Assembly: GCF_900105015.1 (NCBI RefSeq)
Contig: NZ_FNLK01000001.1
Coordinates: 1 to 32,000 of the forward strand
Direction: 5' to 3'
DNA length: 32,000 bases
Origin: Schaalia meyeri
Lineage (GTDB): Bacteria; Actinomycetota; Actinomycetes; Actinomycetales; Actinomycetaceae
The notes beneath the pieces are model-generated. The model saw nothing but the letters and a program-made list of their open reading frames with translations, ran no database searches and had not been told where the DNA came from. The number at the start of each line of letters is the position of its first letter. Position 1 is the stretch's first letter. This document shows positions 1 through 6,641 of this stretch, one piece after another. The position numbers and the translations under genes were made by a program.

Positions 1-24
1 ACACCTGCCGGGGCTCCGCCCACG

Positions 25-792
25 ATGCCCCCTGCGGATGCACCGATGCGTGACCAGGACATCTACCGCGCAGACCTCCAAGAGCACCGGGAACAGGTTC
101 AGCGAGCCATCGACTTCGAGGAACTCCGCAAGCAAGCATTAGGAGTACGCGCAGATCTTGAGGACTGGGTGCGCAAACACCTGTTGTCGGTTCAGTCGAA
201 ACCACCGAAGTCGTTCCTGAAGTACTTTGACGAGGAACGCAACGAATATATGAGCAGACCCTGGCAGCTAGGGGTAATCGGAACTGATATTGGGTATGCC
301 ACTCGCGCCGCGTATCGGGAGGACGCCCTCGCCAGAAGCGCATCGGACGTCACCAAACTCATGAGACTCCCCGGATTAAGCCAAATACGCCCAGTTATGG
401 ACTTCAAGCTGAAGAAGGCTGTAGAAAACGGCCACCGCTATGACGCAGCTCGATCCACATCATCGAAGGTATCCACAGGAGCAACGGTCGTATCAGGCGC
501 CGTTCTTGCGTACGACATTGCAACATCAGACGAGCCGGGGAAGACTGCTGTCGCAGGCGGCGCAGGAATGTTCTTGGGAGCAGCCACAGGATCGTTGGCT
601 AGCAATTTCATTACACAACGCCTAGGGAGCGCAGCTTTGGGCGCTGTAATCGGTGGTCCTTTGGGCCTCGCTGCAGGCTTCGTGGCCACCGCAGCCACTT
701 CAGCAGCTTACGACCAGATTCCTCTGGAGTATCGTGAGCGTGTCGACAACGCCCTGTGGCACTGGCCGTACTACATCGGGATGGGGTGGTGA
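25..792 (+). CDS. Glycine-zipper membrane protein, probably the C-terminal part of a larger protein; candidate pore-forming polymorphic-toxin C-terminal domain
   Basis: The frame is open from nt 1 with no stop before the ATG at 25, so the gene may start left of the window. The N-terminal part is charged and helical (RDQDIYRADLQEHREQVQRAIDFEELRKQ). Residues ~172-228 (nt ~538-708) are consecutive GxxxG repeats: GGAGMFLGAATGS...GSAALGAVIGGPLGLAAGFVATAATSAAY. It ends PLEYRERVDNALWHWPYYIGMGW*. The stop TGA (790-792) lies 1 nt before the GTG of the next gene. Confidence 0.6.
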   Translation: MPPADAPMRDQDIYRADLQEHREQVQRAIDFEELRKQALGVRADLEDWVRKHLLSVQSKPPKSFLKYFDEERNEYMSRPWQLGVIGTDIGYATRAAYREDALARSASDVTKLMRLPGLSQIRPVMDFKLKKAVENGHRYDAARSTSSKVSTGATVVSGAVLAYDIATSDEPGKTAVAGGAGMFLGAATGSLASNFITQRLGSAALGAVIGGPLGLAAGFVATAATSAAYDQIPLEYRERVDNALWHWPYYIGMGW

Positions 793-793
793 C

Positions 794-1636
794 GTGCGCT
801 GGCACCCATATATTCACCTAACCCTGAAGAGCGCACCGCCAGATCCCCAGAGCCAAGATAAGCAGGCATATGGCTATTGGAAGAATGCGGTTCTTGTCCT
901 GTTTTTTTCGGTTGCACTTACCCTCACTCTTTACGCATCCTCCATGAGGAAACCTATTGACCCCCGTGCGGTAATGTTCGTCTGCTTTCCGCTATTTATT
1001 TTTACGCAACTCCCTTTCTTGGCTGAAAGGAGCGTGCGCCCCTTCGCCCCGTCTCGCCCTCGATACGAGGGTGGTGCCATCGTCATACCAGGAAACCGAG
1101 AGTCCATCGCTCGCATCATCAGTGCGTATTTTCTGGGGATAGCAGCCGTAGCAGTACTGGTATACGGCTTCGTGACCCACTACCCCCTACAAGCTGCAAC
1201 ATACGCGGCGGTAGCGCTATTTGTGATCTACTGGGACGGGACTCGTCGTCCGATTTCGGATCTGTTGATCGCTTTGCGCGACAGGCAAACGACCACGCTC
1301 ACGCCCGAAGGGATCTCCTTTCACTTCCCACAACCACCATCCATTGAGGAAAATGACCACGACACGGATGTGACGATCCTCTGGAAAGACAACGTACATG
1401 TCTTTTCAATTATCCACGACGACTTGAACCTCTTCGGCAACACAACACACCCCGGCCCCTGGAGCATCTGCTCCCACCACATCGGCATCACCTACACCGG
1501 GCTCGATACCCTCATGCGACACTTCAACGACCACCCACAGGACCGCCCACTCCTCGCCACACCCAACGGCCTCGACCTGGTCAACCAAATCCTCACCAAA
1601 GCACACAAAACCATCACCAACCCCACAAAACAATAG
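794..1636 (+). CDS. Polytopic membrane protein (about 4 TM helices plus ~130-aa soluble C-terminal domain), paralog 1; candidate immunity protein
   Basis: The GTG at 794 sits in the junction TGGTGACGTG and is preceded by GGGATGGGGTGG. The track ORF 653..1636 overlaps the upstream gene, and similarity to the paralog starts exactly at VRWHPYIH. Hydrophobic segments: NAVLVLFFSVALTLTLYA, AVMFVCFPLFIFTQLPFLA, IARIISAYFLGIAAVAVLVYGFV, LQAATYAAVALFVIYW. The C-terminal domain is beta-rich (TTTLTPEGISFHF...VTILWK...HIGITYTG). Length is 280 aa, identical to paralog 2. Confidence 0.7.
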   Translation: MRWHPYIHLTLKSAPPDPQSQDKQAYGYWKNAVLVLFFSVALTLTLYASSMRKPIDPRAVMFVCFPLFIFTQLPFLAERSVRPFAPSRPRYEGGAIVIPGNRESIARIISAYFLGIAAVAVLVYGFVTHYPLQAATYAAVALFVIYWDGTRRPISDLLIALRDRQTTTLTPEGISFHFPQPPSIEENDHDTDVTILWKDNVHVFSIIHDDLNLFGNTTHPGPWSICSHHIGITYTGLDTLMRHFNDHPQDRPLLATPNGLDLVNQILTKAHKTITNPTKQ

Positions 1637-1643
1637 AAAATAC

Positions 1644-1766
1644 ATGGACGCCACGCCGCAAAAAACGCATCTCCAGGTGACCCCATCCGCCCGGCATATT
1701 CCAAACGACAAACGTGTCGACAAGGCCCTGTGGCACTGGCCGTACTACATTGGACTGGGGTGGTGA
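1644..1766 (+). pseudogene. Orphan 3' relic of the upstream glycine-zipper gene (40-codon ORF keeping only the tail RVDKALWHWPYYIGLGW)
   Basis: By hand: ATG 1644 ... TGA 1764-1766 gives MDATPQKTHLQVTPSARHIPNDKRVDKALWHWPYYIGLGW. The last 17 codons (1713-1763) are near-identical in nucleotides to 739-789. The same TGGTGACGTG stop/start junction follows. There is no TM or glycine zipper and only a weak RBS. Confidence 0.45.
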
Positions 1767-1767
1767 C

Positions 1768-2610
1768 GTGCGCTGGCACCCATACATTCACCCACCCCAT
1801 AAGGACATACCGCCAGATCCCCTGAGCCAGGACAGACACGCTCGACGGTACTGGATGGGCGTCGTCATCCTCGTCCTTGTCAGCTTGGCGCTGCCAACAG
1901 GTGCCTACGCCTTCGGGCTGGCAGACCCCACCTACCCACCGACCGTGATGCTCCTCCTGTCCTTCCCTGGCGCGGTAGCGGCATCACTCCCACAGCTCAT
2001 CGAAAGGAGTGTCCGCCCCTTCGCTCCCTCCCGGCCTCGATACGTCGATAGCGCGATCGTCATACGAGGAAACCACGACTCGATCGCCCACATGATCAGC
2101 GTTTACTTGCTGGGAATAGCGGCCGCAGCACTACTGATATACGGCTTGATCACCCGATACCCCCTGCAGGCAGCAACCTACGCCGGATTGGTAGTCTTTG
2201 CGCTGTACTGGGATGGGATCCGACGCCCCTTCTCAGACCTGCCGATGGCCCTGCGCCACAAACAGACGACCACGCTCACACCCGAGGGAATCGTCTTCCA
2301 CTTCCCTCCGCCCCTATCGTTTGAAAGCCACGAGCGCGACGCGGAAGTGACGATCCTGTGGAAGCAAGGCATCCACATTGAGTCAGTCGAGGAACACATC
2401 ATCTATCTCAGCAACCTCTCGCACGAAGGCCCATGGGACCTCTGCGCCGACCACATCGGCATCACCTACACGGGCATTGACGCCATCATGCGCCACTTCA
2501 ACGACCACCCACAGGACCGCCCACTCCTCGCCACACCCAACGGCCTCGACCTGGTCAACCAAATCCTCACCAAAGCACACAAAACCATCACCAACCCCAC
2601 AAACAAATAG
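1768..2610 (+). CDS. Polytopic membrane protein, paralog 2 of 794..1636; candidate immunity protein
   Basis: The GTG at 1768 is exactly 974 nt after the GTG at 794. It is 280 aa and collinear with paralog 1 without indels. Shared blocks: ERSVRPFAPSRPRY, YPLQAATYA, QTTTLTPEGI, VTILWK, HIGITYTG, and an identical C-terminal ~36 aa. The TM1-TM2 region and the middle of the soluble domain are strongly diverged. Confidence 0.7.
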   Translation: MRWHPYIHPPHKDIPPDPLSQDRHARRYWMGVVILVLVSLALPTGAYAFGLADPTYPPTVMLLLSFPGAVAASLPQLIERSVRPFAPSRPRYVDSAIVIRGNHDSIAHMISVYLLGIAAAALLIYGLITRYPLQAATYAGLVVFALYWDGIRRPFSDLPMALRHKQTTTLTPEGIVFHFPPPLSFESHERDAEVTILWKQGIHIESVEEHIIYLSNLSHEGPWDLCADHIGITYTGIDAIMRHFNDHPQDRPLLATPNGLDLVNQILTKAHKTITNPTNK

Positions 2611-2619
2611 GAAATCCAC

Positions 2620-2769
2620 ATGAGCACCAAGAAACGCGTCCTCATTACGATCATCGTCGCCGTCCTCGTCGGAATCGTCATCTTCCCCATGCTCCCCCTC
2701 GAATATCGGGAACGCATTACCGCCATCCTCACCCACCCCCTGTACTACCTCGGCCTGGGACGCTGGTAA
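2620..2769 (+). CDS. 49-aa single-pass membrane mini-protein carrying the same C-terminal tail motif as the glycine-zipper protein
   Basis: By hand: ATG 2620 ... TAA 2767-2769 gives MSTKKRVLITIIVAVLVGIVIFPMLPLEYRERITAILTHPLYYLGLGRW. It has a KKR anchor, one TM helix, then PLEYRER-x8-HPLYYLGLGRW. That parallels PLEYRERVDNALWHWPYYIGMGW at the end of 25..792. It is too short for the ORF track, and GGAAA lies 6 nt upstream. Confidence 0.45.
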   Translation: MSTKKRVLITIIVAVLVGIVIFPMLPLEYRERITAILTHPLYYLGLGRW

Positions 2770-2779
2770 CCCCTAGCCC
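2732..2779. repeat. 48-bp direct repeat, copy 1 (3' end of the mini-ORF plus CCCCTAGCCC)
   Basis: CCCACCCCCTGTACTACCTCGGCCTGGGA[C]GCTGGTAACCCCTAGCCC. It differs at one base (C/T) from 3765-3812, which lies 1033 bp downstream. Confidence 0.9.
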
Positions 2780-2857
2780 CACGGTCAATCGCGAGCCGTT
2801 GGCACATACGGGGGATTCTCCGGCGAAAAGTTCCGATCGCGGTGGCACACTGAGACC

Positions 2858-3739
2858 ATGACCGACACGAACACGCTCAAGACAGCCCCGGCCTCGTCCC
2901 TGCCAACCCTCGCCATCACCGGCGCCTCCGGGAACGTCGGTGGGACCGCCGCGCGCACCCTTGTCGCCCGGGGGAAATCCCTGCGCCTGCTGGCACACAC
3001 GCCCTCGCGGGCCCCCAAGCTGCCCGGTTCCGTCGCCGTTCAGTGCTCGTACGAGGACACCCCGGCCTCGCGCGCAGCCCTCACCGGCGTCGATACCCTC
3101 TTCATGGTGTCGGCACCCGAGAGCGAGCACCGCCTGCTCAAACATCTCGCGTTCGTCGACGCAGCTGCCGCGTCAGGCGTGCGACACATCGTGTACCTGT
3201 CGTTCATGAATGCGGCCCCCAACTCGACGTTCACGCTGGCACGCACGCACTTTCACACGGAGGAACACATCAAGGCCTCCGGCATGACGTACACGTTCCT
3301 TCGGGACAACTTTTACGCGGACTTCTTTTCTGCCCTGCCTGACGAGGAAGGCCGTATTCTCGGGCCCGCCGGGGACGGGCGCGTTGGCGTGGTCTCGCGC
3401 GAGGACGCGGGTCGCGTGGCAGCCGGAGTCCTCGCAGAACCCGGCAAATACGAGAACCAGACGCTGGACGTGACCGGCCCGCAGGCCCTCACCCTCGACG
3501 AGATCGCGCAGGTCCTCACCCGCACGACGGGCCGTCCCGTCGTATACGTGCGCGAAACCGTTGACGAGGCGTATGAATCCCGCAAAAAGTGGCCCGCCGC
3601 CCAGTGGGAATACGACTCGTGGGTGTCCACATACACGTCGATCGCCGCAGGCGAGATGGACGTCGTCTCCACGACGGTCCGCGACGTGACGGGCCACGAA
3701 CCCCTAAGCTTTGAAGATGTAGCGCTCGGCCAGGCCTGA
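2858..3739 (+). CDS. NmrA-family / atypical SDR NAD(P)H-binding protein
   Basis: N-terminal Rossmann motif LAITGASGNVGGTAARTLVARG. The ~290-aa length and overall pattern (VDTLFMVS..., VRHIVYLSF) are typical of NmrA/YtfG-like NAD(P)H-binding proteins. Confidence 0.8.
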   Translation: MTDTNTLKTAPASSLPTLAITGASGNVGGTAARTLVARGKSLRLLAHTPSRAPKLPGSVAVQCSYEDTPASRAALTGVDTLFMVSAPESEHRLLKHLAFVDAAAASGVRHIVYLSFMNAAPNSTFTLARTHFHTEEHIKASGMTYTFLRDNFYADFFSALPDEEGRILGPAGDGRVGVVSREDAGRVAAGVLAEPGKYENQTLDVTGPQALTLDEIAQVLTRTTGRPVVYVRETVDEAYESRKKWPAAQWEYDSWVSTYTSIAAGEMDVVSTTVRDVTGHEPLSFEDVALGQA

Positions 3740-3764
3740 CGAGGGGGACACCCCCATTTTATCG

Positions 3765-3812
3765 CCCACCCCCTGTACTACCTCGGCCTGGGATGCTGGT
3801 AACCCCTAGCCC
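3765..3812. repeat. 48-bp direct repeat, copy 2 (non-coding relic HPLYYLGLGCW*, overlapping the stop codon of the ROK gene on the other strand)
   Basis: Same 48-mer as 2732-2779 with one mismatch. No start codon lies upstream in frame. The relic is in frame with, and 27 nt after, the TGA of the NmrA-like gene. The CTA at 3806-3808 inside the repeat is the stop of the minus-strand ROK gene. Confidence 0.9.
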
Positions 3813-5128
3813 AGCCAGGAAGCCGGATCATCCACCAACGCATCCAGCACGCGATACGCAGCACCCCGCACCGTCAGGGAGGCCGAATCCGGCAGCACTT
3901 CCACCACGGGCAACGACCACGGTGCCTGCAGCGTGCGTGTCGCGATCTCCGCCCGCGCGGGCTCCAACAGGGCCACGCTCAGCTCAGCGACCGCTCCCCC
4001 CAACACCACGTGCGGGATGTCCATCGCGTTAATCACCCCGGACAGCACACGCCCCAACGCCGCACCAGCCTCCGCCAGCACGGAACGCGCGTACGCCGCG
4101 TCCGCTGCACGCTCCCCCGTTCCGGGCCGTTCAGCCACGGCCTCGTCGATCAGGCCAGCGCACCGCAGGATCCCGCGCGCCCCCGAACCCGGGGAAGCAC
4201 CCACGCGTCCCGCCAGCGCGCGCACGCCCACGTACGCTTCCAAACACCCGCGCGCACCACACCGACACAGCGGCCCGTTCGGGTCCACGCACATATGTCC
4301 GATCTCGCCTGACCAGGAGCGCGCGCCGCTCATCGGGCGGTAATCCACGATCACTCCCGCGCCGACGCCCACTTCGCCCGACACGTACACGAACGACGGC
4401 GGGCCGCCCGCCACGCCCGGACGCGAATAGGCCACCGCGTATGCCGCCAAGTCCGCCTCGTTTGCGACCACCACGGGATGCAGATCGCCCAAGGGAGCCA
4501 GCAGCTCCTCGTGCGGCACGTCCCGCCACCCCAGGTTCGGGGCCAGCGCCAGCATCGTTCTAGAAACCAGGCCGGGCAGCCCGATGCCCGTCCCCAAGAA
4601 CAGGGCCTCTTTGGGCAGGGACTCGTCCATCATGGTGCGCGCCTCGCGGGCCGCGAGCGCCATCGTGTCATCCGGTGAGCTGTCGGCAAAATCCTGGGTG
4701 ACGCGGCGGTGGGCCAGCTCCTCCCCGGTCAGATCCACCAGCATCACGTCGAGGCTCGCGACGTCGATCTCCACGCCCAACGCGGCCGCCCTCCCCGCCG
4801 CTGGGGTCAGACGGTTCGCGGGTCGGCCACGGCTTCCATCCTCGCTCGGCTCCAGCTCACGGACGAGGCCCCCGCCCACCAGGTCATCAACGAGGCGTGA
4901 GATCGTCGCCCGCGTCATCCCGGTTCGCTGCGCCAGGCCCGCGCGCGTCACGTCGCCCGGGGAGGCTAAGATTTCGCGCAACACCGTCGACAGGTTCGAT
5001 GCGCGCACGTTTTCCGACTTCACACCCTGGCCTCTCGTGGCCCCGCCGCGCTCTGCCGGACGCTGCGCCACGGCCGCGCTGCGGCCGCGACAGATTGGGT
5101 CGTCGATGGAATCGGAACGGGTCGGCAT
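3806..5128 (-). CDS. xylR: ROK-family transcriptional repressor, xylose-repressor-like
   Basis: N-terminal winged HTH (NLSTVLREILASPGDVTRAGLAQRTGMTRATISRLVDDLV). ROK sugar-kinase-like domain with the zinc motif GHMCVDPNGPLCRCGARGCLEAY. It is divergent from xylA-xylB. The start is uncertain; an in-frame GTG near 5023 is an alternative. Confidence 0.85.
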   Translation of the reverse strand: MPTRSDSIDDPICRGRSAAVAQRPAERGGATRGQGVKSENVRASNLSTVLREILASPGDVTRAGLAQRTGMTRATISRLVDDLVGGGLVRELEPSEDGSRGRPANRLTPAAGRAAALGVEIDVASLDVMLVDLTGEELAHRRVTQDFADSSPDDTMALAAREARTMMDESLPKEALFLGTGIGLPGLVSRTMLALAPNLGWRDVPHEELLAPLGDLHPVVVANEADLAAYAVAYSRPGVAGGPPSFVYVSGEVGVGAGVIVDYRPMSGARSWSGEIGHMCVDPNGPLCRCGARGCLEAYVGVRALAGRVGASPGSGARGILRCAGLIDEAVAERPGTGERAADAAYARSVLAEAGAALGRVLSGVINAMDIPHVVLGGAVAELSVALLEPARAEIATRTLQAPWSLPVVEVLPDSASLTVRGAAYRVLDALVDDPASWLG

Positions 5129-5302
5129 GCATTCAGGCTACCGTGTCGAGGGTTGGTACACGGATGGACGGCGCTGGTAGCATCGGGCAGCCCCGGGCCA
5201 TATCGACGAGGTGGTCGCACGGGTCCTCGTCCCGTTTCTTCAGCGTTCAAGCCGGTCAGCACGGCCATCGCGCCGCGCGGTCCTTGCAGTGGTGACACGC
5301 TC

Positions 5303-5331
5303 TTGACGAACGCACCACCACGTATTATGTT
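5303..5331 (+). promoter_or_regulatory. Candidate xylA promoter inside the only AT-rich patch of the xylR-xylA intergenic region
   Basis: TTGACG (5303-5308), 17 nt, TATGTT (5326-5331). The following AT-rich stretch TTTTACCCTACAACAAATATTCTG is a plausible operator zone, but I could not find a clean palindrome. Confidence 0.3.
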
Positions 5332-5459
5332 TTACCCTACAACAAATATTCTGCGACGAAGCTAACACGTCTGTAGCGCGACGCTCATCCCCATTTCGCA
5401 CCCCGGGCATCCCGGACCATCTCACCCACCTGGACACTGACGTTTGAAAGGACACCACC

Positions 5460-6641
5460 ATGACACGCACACCCACCCGCGACGACAAGTTCTCCTTCGG
5501 CCTGTGGACCGTCGGCTGGAACGCGGTCGACCCCTTCGGGACGGGCACCCGCCCCGTCCTGGATCCCTGGGAGTACACGGCAAAGCTCGCGGAGATTGGC
5601 GCGTGGGGCATCACCTTCCACGACAACGACGTGTTTGACTTCGACGCGTCGGACCAAGAGCGCCACGATCGCGTCATGAAGGTCAAGGAAGCCGCGGACG
5701 CCGCCGGGCTGGTCATCGAGATGGTCACGACCAACACCTTCACCCACCCCGTATTCAAGGACGGGGGCCTGACCAACAATGATCGCTCGATCCGCCGTTT
5801 CGGCCTGCGCAAGATCCTGCGCAACATCGACCTGGCGGCCGAGATGGGCGCGTCGACCTTCGTCATGTGGGGTGGGCGCGAGGGCGCGGAGTACGACTCC
5901 TCAAAGGACCTGAACGCCGCATTTGCCCGCTACCGGGAGGGCCTGGACACGGTTGCCGCTTACATCAAGTCACGCGGTTACGACCTGCGGATCGGCCTGG
6001 AACCGAAGCCGAATGAGCCTCGCGGCGACATCTTCCTGCCCACGGTCGGCCACGCGCTGGCCCTGATCGCACAGCTGGATAACGGCGATATCGTGGGCCT
6101 GAATCCAGAGACGGGCCACGAGCAGATGGCCGGCCTGAACTACACGCACGCGCTGGCTCAGGCCCTGAACGCGGACAAACTCTTCCACATCGACCTGAAC
6201 GGGCAGTCAGGCATCAAGTACGACCAAGACAAGGCCTTTGGTCACGGCGACCTGGCCAGCGCATTCTTTACGGTCGACCTGCTGGAGAACGGCTTCCCGG
6301 GCGGCGGCCCCCGCTACGAGGGACCTCGCCACTTCGACTACAAGCCGAGCCGCACGGAGGGCATGGTAGGCGTGTGGGAGTCCGCGCGCGCGAACATGGA
6401 AATGTACCTGACGCTGGCGCAGAAGGCCCGCGCGTTCCGCGAGGATCCGGCGACCCGAGAGCTGCTGGAGGCGGCATCGGTTCCCGAGCTGGCTCAGCCC
6501 ACGCTCGCGGTGGGCGAATCCATCGAGGACTTCCTGGCCGACCGCAGCGCTTACGAGGACTTCGACGCTGACGCGGCGGGCGCGCGCGAGTACCACTTCG
6601 TGGAGCTGTACCAGCAGGCGATGCGTCACCTGATCGGCTGA
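5460..6641 (+). CDS. xylA: Xylose isomerase (short class I, actinobacterial type)
   Basis: 393 aa. N-terminus is [19 protein letters not shown]. Also present: [18 protein letters not shown] and [13 protein letters not shown], characteristic of class I XylA. RBS GAAAGGA lies upstream. Confidence 0.97.

Follow-up and report, generated by a model that had tools for sequence, protein, structure and literature searches.

A candidate distal Esx (type VII) glycine-zipper toxin/immunity module of Schaalia meyeri

The left edge of a 32,000-nucleotide (nt) stretch of Schaalia meyeri DNA (the window, meaning the whole stretch analysed) raises the question of what is encoded by an open reading frame (ORF) that enters from the left, ends in glycine repeats, and is followed by two tandem genes for membrane proteins. 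A preliminary description, made from the window alone, had read this arrangement as a polymorphic toxin with tandem immunity genes. Our analysis points, with a probability of about 0.65, to a distal Esx (type VII) glycine-zipper toxin/immunity module, in which the left-edge ORF would encode the effector and the two membrane proteins, I1 and I2, would provide immunity. The first 3,900 bases of the window are identical to CP066065.1 and 99.97% identical to CP012072.1, and the effector is present in the database as S. meyeri ADJ76_07990. The effector gene starts 392 nt to the left of the window; the full gene (L002 6751–7935) encodes 394 amino acids (aa).

The candidate effector and its partner genes

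The following features of the effector lie in the window:

1–792, plus strand: 3′ part of the effector gene (aa 132–394 of the 394-aa candidate Esx effector), open at the left edge, with stop codon TGA at 790–792
226–720, plus strand: hypervariable effector cassette, aa ~207–371, comprising the middle helices and the zipper region, with 33–62% nt identity between alleles
553–603, plus strand: glycine zipper 1, AGGAGMFLGAATGSLAS, aa 316–332, A316xxxG320xxxG324xxxG328xxxS332
628–690, plus strand: glycine zipper 2, SAALGAVIGGPLGLAAGFVAT, aa 341–361, S341xxxG345xxxG349xxxG353xxxG357xxxT361
718–792, plus strand: conserved C-terminal tail, IPLEYRERVDNALWHWPYYIGMGW, and stop codon, with invariant P372, L373, E374, R378, H385, P387, Y388, G391, and W394

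The glycine repeats seen at the end of the left-open ORF resolve into two extended glycine zippers. We defined a zipper as (G/A/S)xxxGxxxG or GxxxGxxx(G/S/T), following PMC12744356, and took composition-preserving shuffles of the region as the null. The zipper motif occurs in 10 overlapping instances, versus 1.6 expected (P about 0.0007); GxxxGxxxG occurs 3 times, versus 0.28 expected (P 0.007); and plain GxxxG gives a weaker signal, with 5 instances versus 2.0 expected (P 0.03). The motif is present in 36 of 36 aligned family members. Gly, Ala, and Ser make up 50% of the zipper region, versus 21% of the rest of the effector, and only two charged residues are found across residues 313–368. Searches of Pfam, NCBIfam, and PDB sequences revealed no homology to TelE, EsxX, TspA, or the Pfam Gly-zipper families; TraT (expectation value, E, 0.08) and YiaD (E 0.92) alone came up. 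The tail that follows the zippers is the most conserved part of the effector: in comparison with the ortholog of locus L009, the proportion of nonsynonymous differences (pN) is 0.10 in the tail, 0.22 in the secretion domain, and 0.49–0.55 in the variable part.

Extension of the locus to the left, a check proposed in the preliminary description, completes the 394-aa protein and brings in two small operon partners. In particular, an N-terminal WXG/YxxxD helical domain and two upstream small genes, of 98 and 97 aa, lie outside the window to the left. The N-terminal 200 residues of the effector are soluble and helical, and an AlphaFold2 model shows three long helices, 26–51, 64–117, and 147–197, with a predicted local distance difference test (pLDDT) score of 60–89. 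W61 and G63, invariant in the family alignment, sit between helices 26–51 and 64–117, and 'AYAQQLDYHYRDMETIR', which holds the YxxxD motif (Y103-H-Y-R-D107), is invariant in the close family and takes the form [YWS]xxxD in distant members. This is the WXG100-type arrangement, in which WxG occupies the turn of a helix-turn-helix and a YxxxD/E motif is present.

Profile searches point in the same direction at sub-threshold scores. Specifically, effector residues 21–101 match T7SS_signal (T7SS, type VII secretion system; PF21725) with 18.8 bits (cut-off 27) and WXG100 (PF06013) with 18.3 bits (cut-off 27.3), and the effector scores 18.3 bits with TIGR03930 (cut-off 44.85). In precomputed tables, PF06013 or PF21725 matches are listed for many effector homologs, and such matches are weak or faint in the context tables of two. 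A PDB sequence search with residues 21–86 ranks WXG100 proteins at the top with marginal E (0.05–0.5). A Foldseek comparison of the effector model with the PDB gave no significant match; among its generic long-helix matches, PPE41 is the best compact one, at a target-normalised TM-score of 0.61 that is not significant. Relatives carry the database names 'WXG100 family type VII secretion target', 'putative T7SS-secreted protein', and 'Glycine zipper family protein'. The effector has no match to LXG (PF04740) at E ≤ 1 in Pfam or NCBIfam.

The operon order is a SAV_915/SseB-like gene (98 aa), a DUF6317-like gene (97 aa), the effector gene, I1, a tail relic, I2, and a 49-aa gene, with stops and starts overlapping or adjacent throughout, including those of the two small genes 5′ of the effector. 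The locus thus has the Eat-like gene order of small accessory gene(s), N-terminal helical-bundle toxin, and immunity gene. The 98-aa protein matches the NCBIfam SAV_915 domain above its curated cut-off (52 bits versus 40), and one of its orthologs weakly matches SseB. No protein of the module is better conserved: its identity is 43–79% where that of the effector is 34–49%. The 97-aa protein gives weak, repeated, near full-length DUF6317 matches in 3 of 6 orthologs (best E 0.022); the idea that it is a relative of the effector was rejected, as hhalign against the effector profile found no relationship. Neither small partner has a usable match in a PDB sequence search. On the plus strand, a terminator scan found none between module genes, one weak match within I1, and the first downstream terminator after an NmrA-like gene. 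A promoter scan found no σ70-like site, and an Rfam search of window positions 1–6000 found no RNA family.

The module is a compositional island. Its GC content is 5–13 percentage points below that of the flanks in all four loci compared (the window, L007, L009, and L012): 55–58% versus 65–68% in three, and 64.5% versus 69% in L007. GC content at third codon positions (GC3) is 0.64–0.75 in the five longer module genes, 0.82 in the 49-aa gene, and 0.82–0.87 in neighbouring genes. Three unrelated chromosomal contexts host the module. The genome scan for the module returned 11 loci and undercounts the family, because the peptide patterns used were very strict.

Tandem immunity candidates, tail relic, and mini-protein

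Downstream of the effector gene, the window contains:

794–1636, plus strand: candidate immunity protein I1, 280 aa, with a GTG start 1 nt past the toxin stop
1768–2610, plus strand: candidate immunity paralog I2, 280 aa, intact
739–2618, no strand assigned: tandem duplication with a period of 974–977 nt; first unit 739–1712, second unit from 1713, homology traceable to 2618
1644–1766, plus strand: relic ORF of 40 codons with no transmembrane (TM) segment; its last 17 codons (1716–1766) are a toxin-tail relic with the I2 junction
2620–2769, plus strand: conserved 49-aa membrane protein, with MSTKKR, one TM helix (Kyte–Doolittle 3.09), and a PLEYRER...HPLYYLGLGRW tail
3762–3812, no strand assigned: 51-nt scar, a direct repeat 96% identical to 2729–2779 (the end of the 49-aa gene and a further 10 nt)

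The architecture reported in the preliminary description, with a toxin stop 1 nt before a GTG, a downstream gene present twice in tandem, and a 17-codon relic of the toxin tail between the copies, holds in each of these points. At the toxin/I1 junction, TGA 790–792 is followed by C793 and GTG 794, and a tight stop/start junction is kept in every related locus (TGGTAATG, TGGTGAGCATG, ATGGTAA). Gene callers differ, starting I1 at CTG 824 (270 aa) or ATG 944 (230 aa) and giving I2 239–251 aa; GTG 794 and GTG 1768 are favoured as the true starts because the tight junction recurs in related loci and the N-terminal residues VRWHPYIH are conserved. Each duplicated unit takes in the end of a tail, one immunity gene, and the first part of a small ORF, with nt identity of 85% over 739–867, 75% over 1025–1324, and 87% over 1434–1644.

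The I1 and I2 proteins are 61% identical (172/281), both ORFs are intact, and the ratio of nonsynonymous to synonymous substitution rates (dN/dS) is 0.32; both genes are judged to be under purifying selection. The synonymous rate (dS) is 0.47 in the 3′ domain and 1.27 elsewhere, which argues for gene conversion in the 3′ domain, and the C-terminal 60 aa are ~95% identical. Contigs of three independent metagenome assemblies (L004, L005, and L006) start at window positions ~2571–2575, in the repeated immunity 3′ end; because assemblies break there, short-read assemblies under-report the copy number of the locus.

An AlphaFold2 model of I1 (pLDDT 70, predicted TM-score 0.66) has four TM helices, a β-hairpin in the loop between TM helices 2 and 3, and a β-rich C-terminal domain that ends in three helices, with a conserved soluble domain of ~125 aa. 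Arginine-rich loops adjoin both the hairpin and the C-terminal domain, which suggests, by the positive-inside rule, that both are cytoplasmic. Across the 106 clusters of the family, the TM half is highly variable and the C-terminal domain, with the motif HFN.HP.DRPLLATP.G..LVN.IL, is highly conserved; mosaic P0122 shares 38% identity with I1 over the TM half and 93% over the C-terminal domain. The earlier impression that the membrane protein belongs to no named family is borne out in Pfam, NCBIfam, and the PDB. Specifically, I1 has no Pfam or NCBIfam match at E ≤ 1, I2 has chance-level matches only, and DUF443 (TsaI) is unmatched by either; profile searches found no PDB sequence match, and Foldseek found no PDB match at E ≤ 0.001. 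By these searches, I1 and I2 constitute a new candidate immunity family.

The relic between the two immunity genes, RVDKALWHWPYYIGLGW (1716–1766), matches RVDNALWHWPYYIGMGW at 15 of 17 residues and has an identical TGGTGACGTG junction. The ATG of the relic ORF lies at the position equivalent to the start of the 49-aa gene after I2, and in L009 the relic begins MSTRKQ, resembling MSTKKR. Since the two starts match, the most plausible reading of the relic is a former 49-aa gene: its 3′ part would have recombined with a toxin tail, its TM segment would since have decayed, and only the I2-junction stretch would have been kept.

The 49-aa ORF had been described as a third repeat of a TM-plus-tail design and counted with the orphan toxin tails. 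The design is real, and the tail is homologous (paralogous) to the toxin tail; its reading as a decayed orphan is rejected. In particular, the family comprises 125 clusters, nearly all of exactly 49 aa and 65–98% identical, some of them on hundreds of contigs, and the comparison with the L009 ortholog gives dN/dS 0.19 and 80% protein identity, where the effectors are 49% identical. The gene is confined to the module subclade with the ...PYY.G.GW tail type and has no meaningful Pfam or NCBIfam match.

A fourth tail fragment, the 51-nt repeat at 3762–3812, was missed by the preliminary description. The two 51-nt copies bracket the NmrA-like gene at 2858–3739, which is orthologous (81% nt identity) to an L009 gene upstream of the module, that is, on the opposite side. 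Window positions 3762–5151 align with the L009 end of the 49-aa gene and ROK gene, so 3762–3812 is interpreted as the scar of a former module/ROK-gene junction. NmrA fragments also flank orphan immunity genes in loci L017 and L018, and the module/NmrA site is apparently a rearrangement hot spot.

The remainder of the window, 2858–32000, is devoted to ordinary sugar metabolism, with xylose and hexuronate catabolism. It contains the NmrA-like gene, ROK regulators, xylose isomerase, xylulokinase, two sugar ATP-binding cassette (ABC) transporters, a YheO-like regulator, an aminotransferase, a Na+/H+ antiporter-family protein, UxuA, a mannitol-type dehydrogenase, an IclR regulator, 2-keto-3-deoxy-6-phosphogluconate (KDPG) aldolase, and a PfkB kinase. 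No Esx machinery genes are present in this remainder of the window.

Allelic variation, proposed mechanism, and alternatives

Comparison with close relatives reveals sharp borders between conserved and variable blocks. Two metagenomic contigs (L014 and L016) are 97–100% identical to the window genome up to window position ~225–260; nt identity is then 33–62% over ~240–720, 92–93% over the tail, and 37–70% over the immunity TM half, and in L014 it is back to 95–100% in the immunity C-terminal domain. Likewise, effector alleles P0001, P0002, and P0003 have 204–210 of 211 residues identical in 1–211, 28–51 of 101 in 212–312, 24–34 of 58 in 313–370, and 23–24 of 24 in the tail. The effector thus shows the pattern expected of polymorphic toxins: between close strains, the N-terminal part is conserved, the C-terminal part varies, and the borders are sharp. 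The further polymorphic-toxin feature of diverse unrelated toxin domains on one trafficking domain was not found. An exhaustive profile search yielded 428 representative effector clusters, 152 of them with E ≤ 1e-10, nearly all 360–430 aa long with a full-length match, and among the best 150 profile matches there was no clear fusion of the N-terminal part alone to another payload. The polymorphism appears to be allelic within one toxin type, confined to a hypervariable segment, and not a shuffling of unrelated toxin domains.

The arrangement of immunity genes is not a fixed single copy: one gene is present in S. georgiae (L007)/L026, L019, and L021–L023; two are present in S. meyeri, L009, and the L012 type, the last with very divergent paralogs; and three are present in Pauljensenia hongkongensis. 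In all loci, toxin and immunity genes are adjacent and translationally coupled, and the immunity TM region is variable. Orphan toxin C-terminal (CT)/immunity modules, their remnants, or orphan immunity genes are present in the window (the relic with I2) and in L024, L020, L017, and L018. In P. hongkongensis HKU8 (CP017298.1; L024 7990–8475), an orphan toxin C-terminal fragment precedes a third immunity gene (imm3); its reading frame opens with an immunity-gene 5′ end, its first ~80 toxin residues match the main toxin at 100% identity, its zipper part is divergent, and its tail is conserved. In L020 (~2830–3930), an eroded module consists of a SAV_915-like 5′ end (MDTMSRNT) fused to a degenerate stretch that ends in the toxin tail (WHVPYYIGFDW*); an intact immunity gene follows, with an intact module just downstream. 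In L017 (2560–4400) and L018 (2725–4400), orphan immunity genes lie upstream of the module among NmrA-like and relic-ORF fragments (TRKQA...NNREH), which indicates repeated rearrangement at the site. Taken together, the allelic cassettes with sharp borders, the orphan modules, and the one to three immunity copies lend support, at the level of sequence, to the polymorphic toxin/tandem-immunity reading of the preliminary description; of the refuting outcomes named there, none that sequence can address was observed.

Two further observations concern the relatives themselves. Immediately next to the S. georgiae module (L007 10128–14790, minus strand) are five genes, which encode a protein of 103 aa, an Abhydrolase_8 protein of 574 aa, two DUF4853 proteins, and a protein of 343 aa, and which may constitute a second Esx substrate or toxin cluster. 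Separately, high-identity modules of the Schaalia/Pauljensenia type are found in L018 (titled Xylanimonas cellulosilytica 352_XCEL), L025 (an uncultured Xylanimonas metagenome-assembled genome), and P0130 (named Cellulomonas flavigena); these assemblies are probably mislabelled or contaminated.

In the mechanism that we propose, the effector N-terminal helical domain, with its WxG turn, YxxxD on the second helix, and long third helix, would target the effector to EccC for export, probably with the help of one of the small partners or of both. Once outside, the C-terminal half would insert into the cytoplasmic membrane of a neighbour through the two zipper helices, with only two charges over 58 residues, and the aromatic interfacial tail, and the zippers would oligomerise and dissipate the membrane potential, by analogy with what has been shown for TspA, EsxX, and TelE. 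I1, translationally coupled to the effector, would neutralise it in the membrane via its variable four-helix TM bundle, while the conserved soluble immunity domain, probably cytoplasmic, would serve a common function. I2 and the tail relic would be the remnant of a second (orphan) toxin-CT/immunity unit, kept for protection against a competitor's toxin allele. Recombination at the conserved blocks would generate the diversity; these blocks are the effector as far as residue ~211, the tail with the immunity 5′ end, and the immunity 3′ domain. More speculatively, and in our estimate quite improbably, the invariant aromatic tail and the 49-aa mini-protein would together form a new control layer, the mini-protein acting like an antiholin or decoy that caps toxin oligomers or competes for a tail-docking site; that site would perhaps be the conserved soluble domain of the immunity protein, and deployment might be against Saccharibacteria epibionts and kin.

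Published work provides a setting for such a module. T7SS toxins that combine a glycine zipper with polytopic membrane proteins as immunity factors have been described (PMC12744356, PMC7456083), and loci of the Tap-toxin-immunity type are found across Actinomycetota (PMC13444075). A 2026 preprint (PMC13622651) reports that the Esx system is active in S. odontolytica; that deletion of eccC in S. odontolytica F0309 raises epibiont growth, so that Esx limits the epibiont; that Esx proteins of S. meyeri W712 rise on epibiont infection; and that distal candidate Esx substrates adjoin small helical genes, with several such clusters, one of them a seven-gene cluster, induced by Saccharibacteria.

Several points weigh against a toxin/immunity module. 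Toxicity, export, and protection are properties that we infer from sequence. The WXG100 and T7SS_signal scores of the effector fall below curated thresholds, its C-terminal half is modelled by AlphaFold2 at pLDDT <40, and no similarity between the 97-aa partner and either WXG100 or the effector N-terminus could be detected. In the S. odontolytica secretome, only four Esx-dependent proteins were detected, all encoded in the Esx cluster, and the module effector is not among them; moreover, deletion of one distal candidate in S. odontolytica gave no phenotype (both PMC13622651). The fixed full-length architecture in ~428 clusters would also fit a conserved physiological role. Finally, toxin alleles P0002 and P0003 differ strongly yet precede the same immunity allele (98–100% identical), which excludes strict toxin–immunity co-variation and argues against simple one-to-one specificity; specificity may be broader. 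The shared immunity allele also indicates that toxin and immunity segments recombine independently across the tail junction.

Some of these points are accommodated by an alternative that we consider unlikely, in which the effector is an Esx substrate not aimed at competing bacteria. It would be membrane-active against Saccharibacteria epibionts or inserted in the cell's own envelope, the four-TM protein would be a partner, chaperone, or receptor, and hypervariability would result from epibiont or phage selection. Induction of distal substrate clusters by the epibiont, including the seven-gene one (PMC13622651), accords with this alternative, as do the fixed architecture over ~428 representative clusters and the loose pairing of toxin and immunity alleles. 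A partner protein does not predict that immunity-like genes outlast toxin erosion, as they do in L020, at the window relic, and in the upstream orphans of L017 and L018; protection against the toxins of other cells does. The orphan CT/immunity pair in L024 and the conserved translational coupling further favour a toxin/immunity module, with which an anti-epibiont role overlaps, since it is compatible with a need for self-immunity.

Within the toxin/immunity module, the assignment of I1 and I2 as cognate and orphan immunity proteins has a competitor of similarly low likelihood: the two could be subunits of a heteromeric immunity complex like ExiC/ExiD, both of which are needed against extracellular EsxX, with the relic tail merely left behind when the toxin tail and its homolog in the 49-aa gene crossed over unequally. 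In favour of this competitor, the relic ORF starts exactly at the 49-aa gene start position (MSTRKQ in L009, like MSTKKR); a second species keeps the two-copy layout and the relic at the same chromosomal site; and L012-type loci also contain two divergent paralogs. An obligate pair is hard to square with the single copy in many loci (L007/L026, L019, L021–L023), with alleles of each paralog found separately in metagenomes, or with the clear orphan and eroded units in relatives. It is highly improbable that these are ordinary membrane proteins without a role in secretion or antagonism, with the glycine-rich region a pair of TM helices: no curated family exceeds threshold for effector or immunity proteins and the immunity protein lacks a structural match, but the soluble helical N-terminus with WxG and YxxxD, the T7SS family matches of homologs, the annotation of relatives as 'putative T7SS-secreted protein', the low-GC island at several chromosomal sites, and the existence of allelic cassettes and orphan modules all speak against that reading.

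Before PMC13622651, by its own account, no Esx effectors of Actinomycetaceae had been identified experimentally; the preprint dates the first demonstration of antibacterial T7SSa toxins to 2026, in mycobacteria. The module is a concrete and widespread candidate, with ~428 representative effector clusters, in abundant human oral bacteria. Cassettes of this kind are known in staphylococci and streptococci and are not described in oral actinobacteria; given TspA, EsxX, TelE, and the 2026 actinobacterial work, the module is not surprising in kind, and it offers a testable candidate in a clinically abundant genus. It brings a predicted mode of action (membrane depolarisation), a new candidate immunity family, a natural allelic series, and orphan immunity genes, and it could reveal whether membrane-active effectors are used in the Esx response to Saccharibacteria.

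Comparison with known systems

In predicted function, the module most resembles TspA/TsaI, EsxX/ExiCD, and TelE; in phylum and gene order, it matches the Eat loci, described in 2026. TspA/TsaI of Staphylococcus aureus (PMC7456083) shares with the Schaalia module a type VII substrate with a highly polymorphic C-terminal domain (depolarising in TspA), a polytopic membrane immunity gene directly downstream, tandem immunity paralogs, and a location distant from the secretion cluster. The two differ in secretion system, T7SSb in the TspA host and T7SSa in the actinobacterium Schaalia; in the effector N-terminus, LXG-like in TspA and WXG100/T7SS_signal-like in Schaalia; and in the immunity protein, TsaI being a DUF443 protein with five TM helices in up to ~10 copies, whereas I1 and I2 combine four TM helices with a soluble domain and lack a Pfam match.

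EsxX/ExiAB/ExiCD of Staphylococcus aureus and TelE of Streptococcus gallolyticus, as described in excerpts of PMC12744356 and PMC10434224, share an extended C-terminal glycine zipper, which is the toxic element there, along with upstream partner genes for small helical proteins, polytopic membrane proteins as protection against the extracellular toxin (a role proposed for I1 and I2 in Schaalia), and membrane immunity genes that stand as orphans in other strains. They have no sequence similarity to the Schaalia effector detectable in a PDB-wide profile search, and the Schaalia effector has no LXG domain. No ExiAB-like soluble pair is recognisable in the Schaalia module, where the SAV_915-like protein could fill that role. 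For the conserved aromatic tail after the zipper and the 49-aa tail protein of Schaalia, the same excerpts give no counterpart in EsxX or TelE.

The Eat loci (TapA1, TapA2, EatA, EatI) of Mycobacteriales/Actinomycetota (PMC13444075) share a T7SSa host, one or two small accessory genes, a helical-bundle N-terminus with a variable payload, and a downstream immunity gene, which encodes a TM protein or lipoprotein if the target is extracytoplasmic. The EatA payload is a GH183 arabinanase, whereas the Schaalia payload is a glycine zipper; the payloads in the main text of PMC13444075 are hydrolases, nucleases, NlpC/P60, and TNT, and that main text includes neither a glycine zipper nor Actinomycetaceae. 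The Eat accessory protein is a helical hairpin, whereas one Schaalia accessory protein is SAV_915/SseB-like.

AesA/AesB of S. odontolytica (PMC13622651) share with the Schaalia effector the bacterial family, the secretion system, an N-terminal helical domain, and a glycine-rich C-terminus. AesB is encoded inside the Esx cluster with no immunity gene described, and its C-terminus comprises a ~160-aa disordered glycine-rich region and a charged region with a GYNVP motif; in contrast, the Schaalia effector has hydrophobic zippers, no GYNVP, and a coupled membrane protein. Identity of the effector with AesB was rejected on account of the GYNVP motif and the disordered, charged C-terminus of AesB.

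In the arrays of contact-dependent inhibition (CDI) and Rhs systems, displaced toxin 3′ fragments each carry their own immunity gene, and an identical upstream stretch serves as recombination arm. The P. hongkongensis orphan (L024) resembles these arrays in its ~80 residues of 100% identity upstream of the variable part. The Schaalia cassettes differ in secretion route, in that all encode one toxin type, and in having a second conserved block after the variable part, formed by the tail and the immunity 5′ end, which makes independent exchange of toxin and immunity segments possible. The combination of a glycine zipper with an actinobacterial Esx substrate was not found in the literature searched. 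The features that, as predicted, together distinguish the Schaalia module are a WXG/T7SS_signal effector with a zipper payload, a SAV_915-like accessory protein, a new immunity family, a conserved tail, and a tail-bearing mini-protein.

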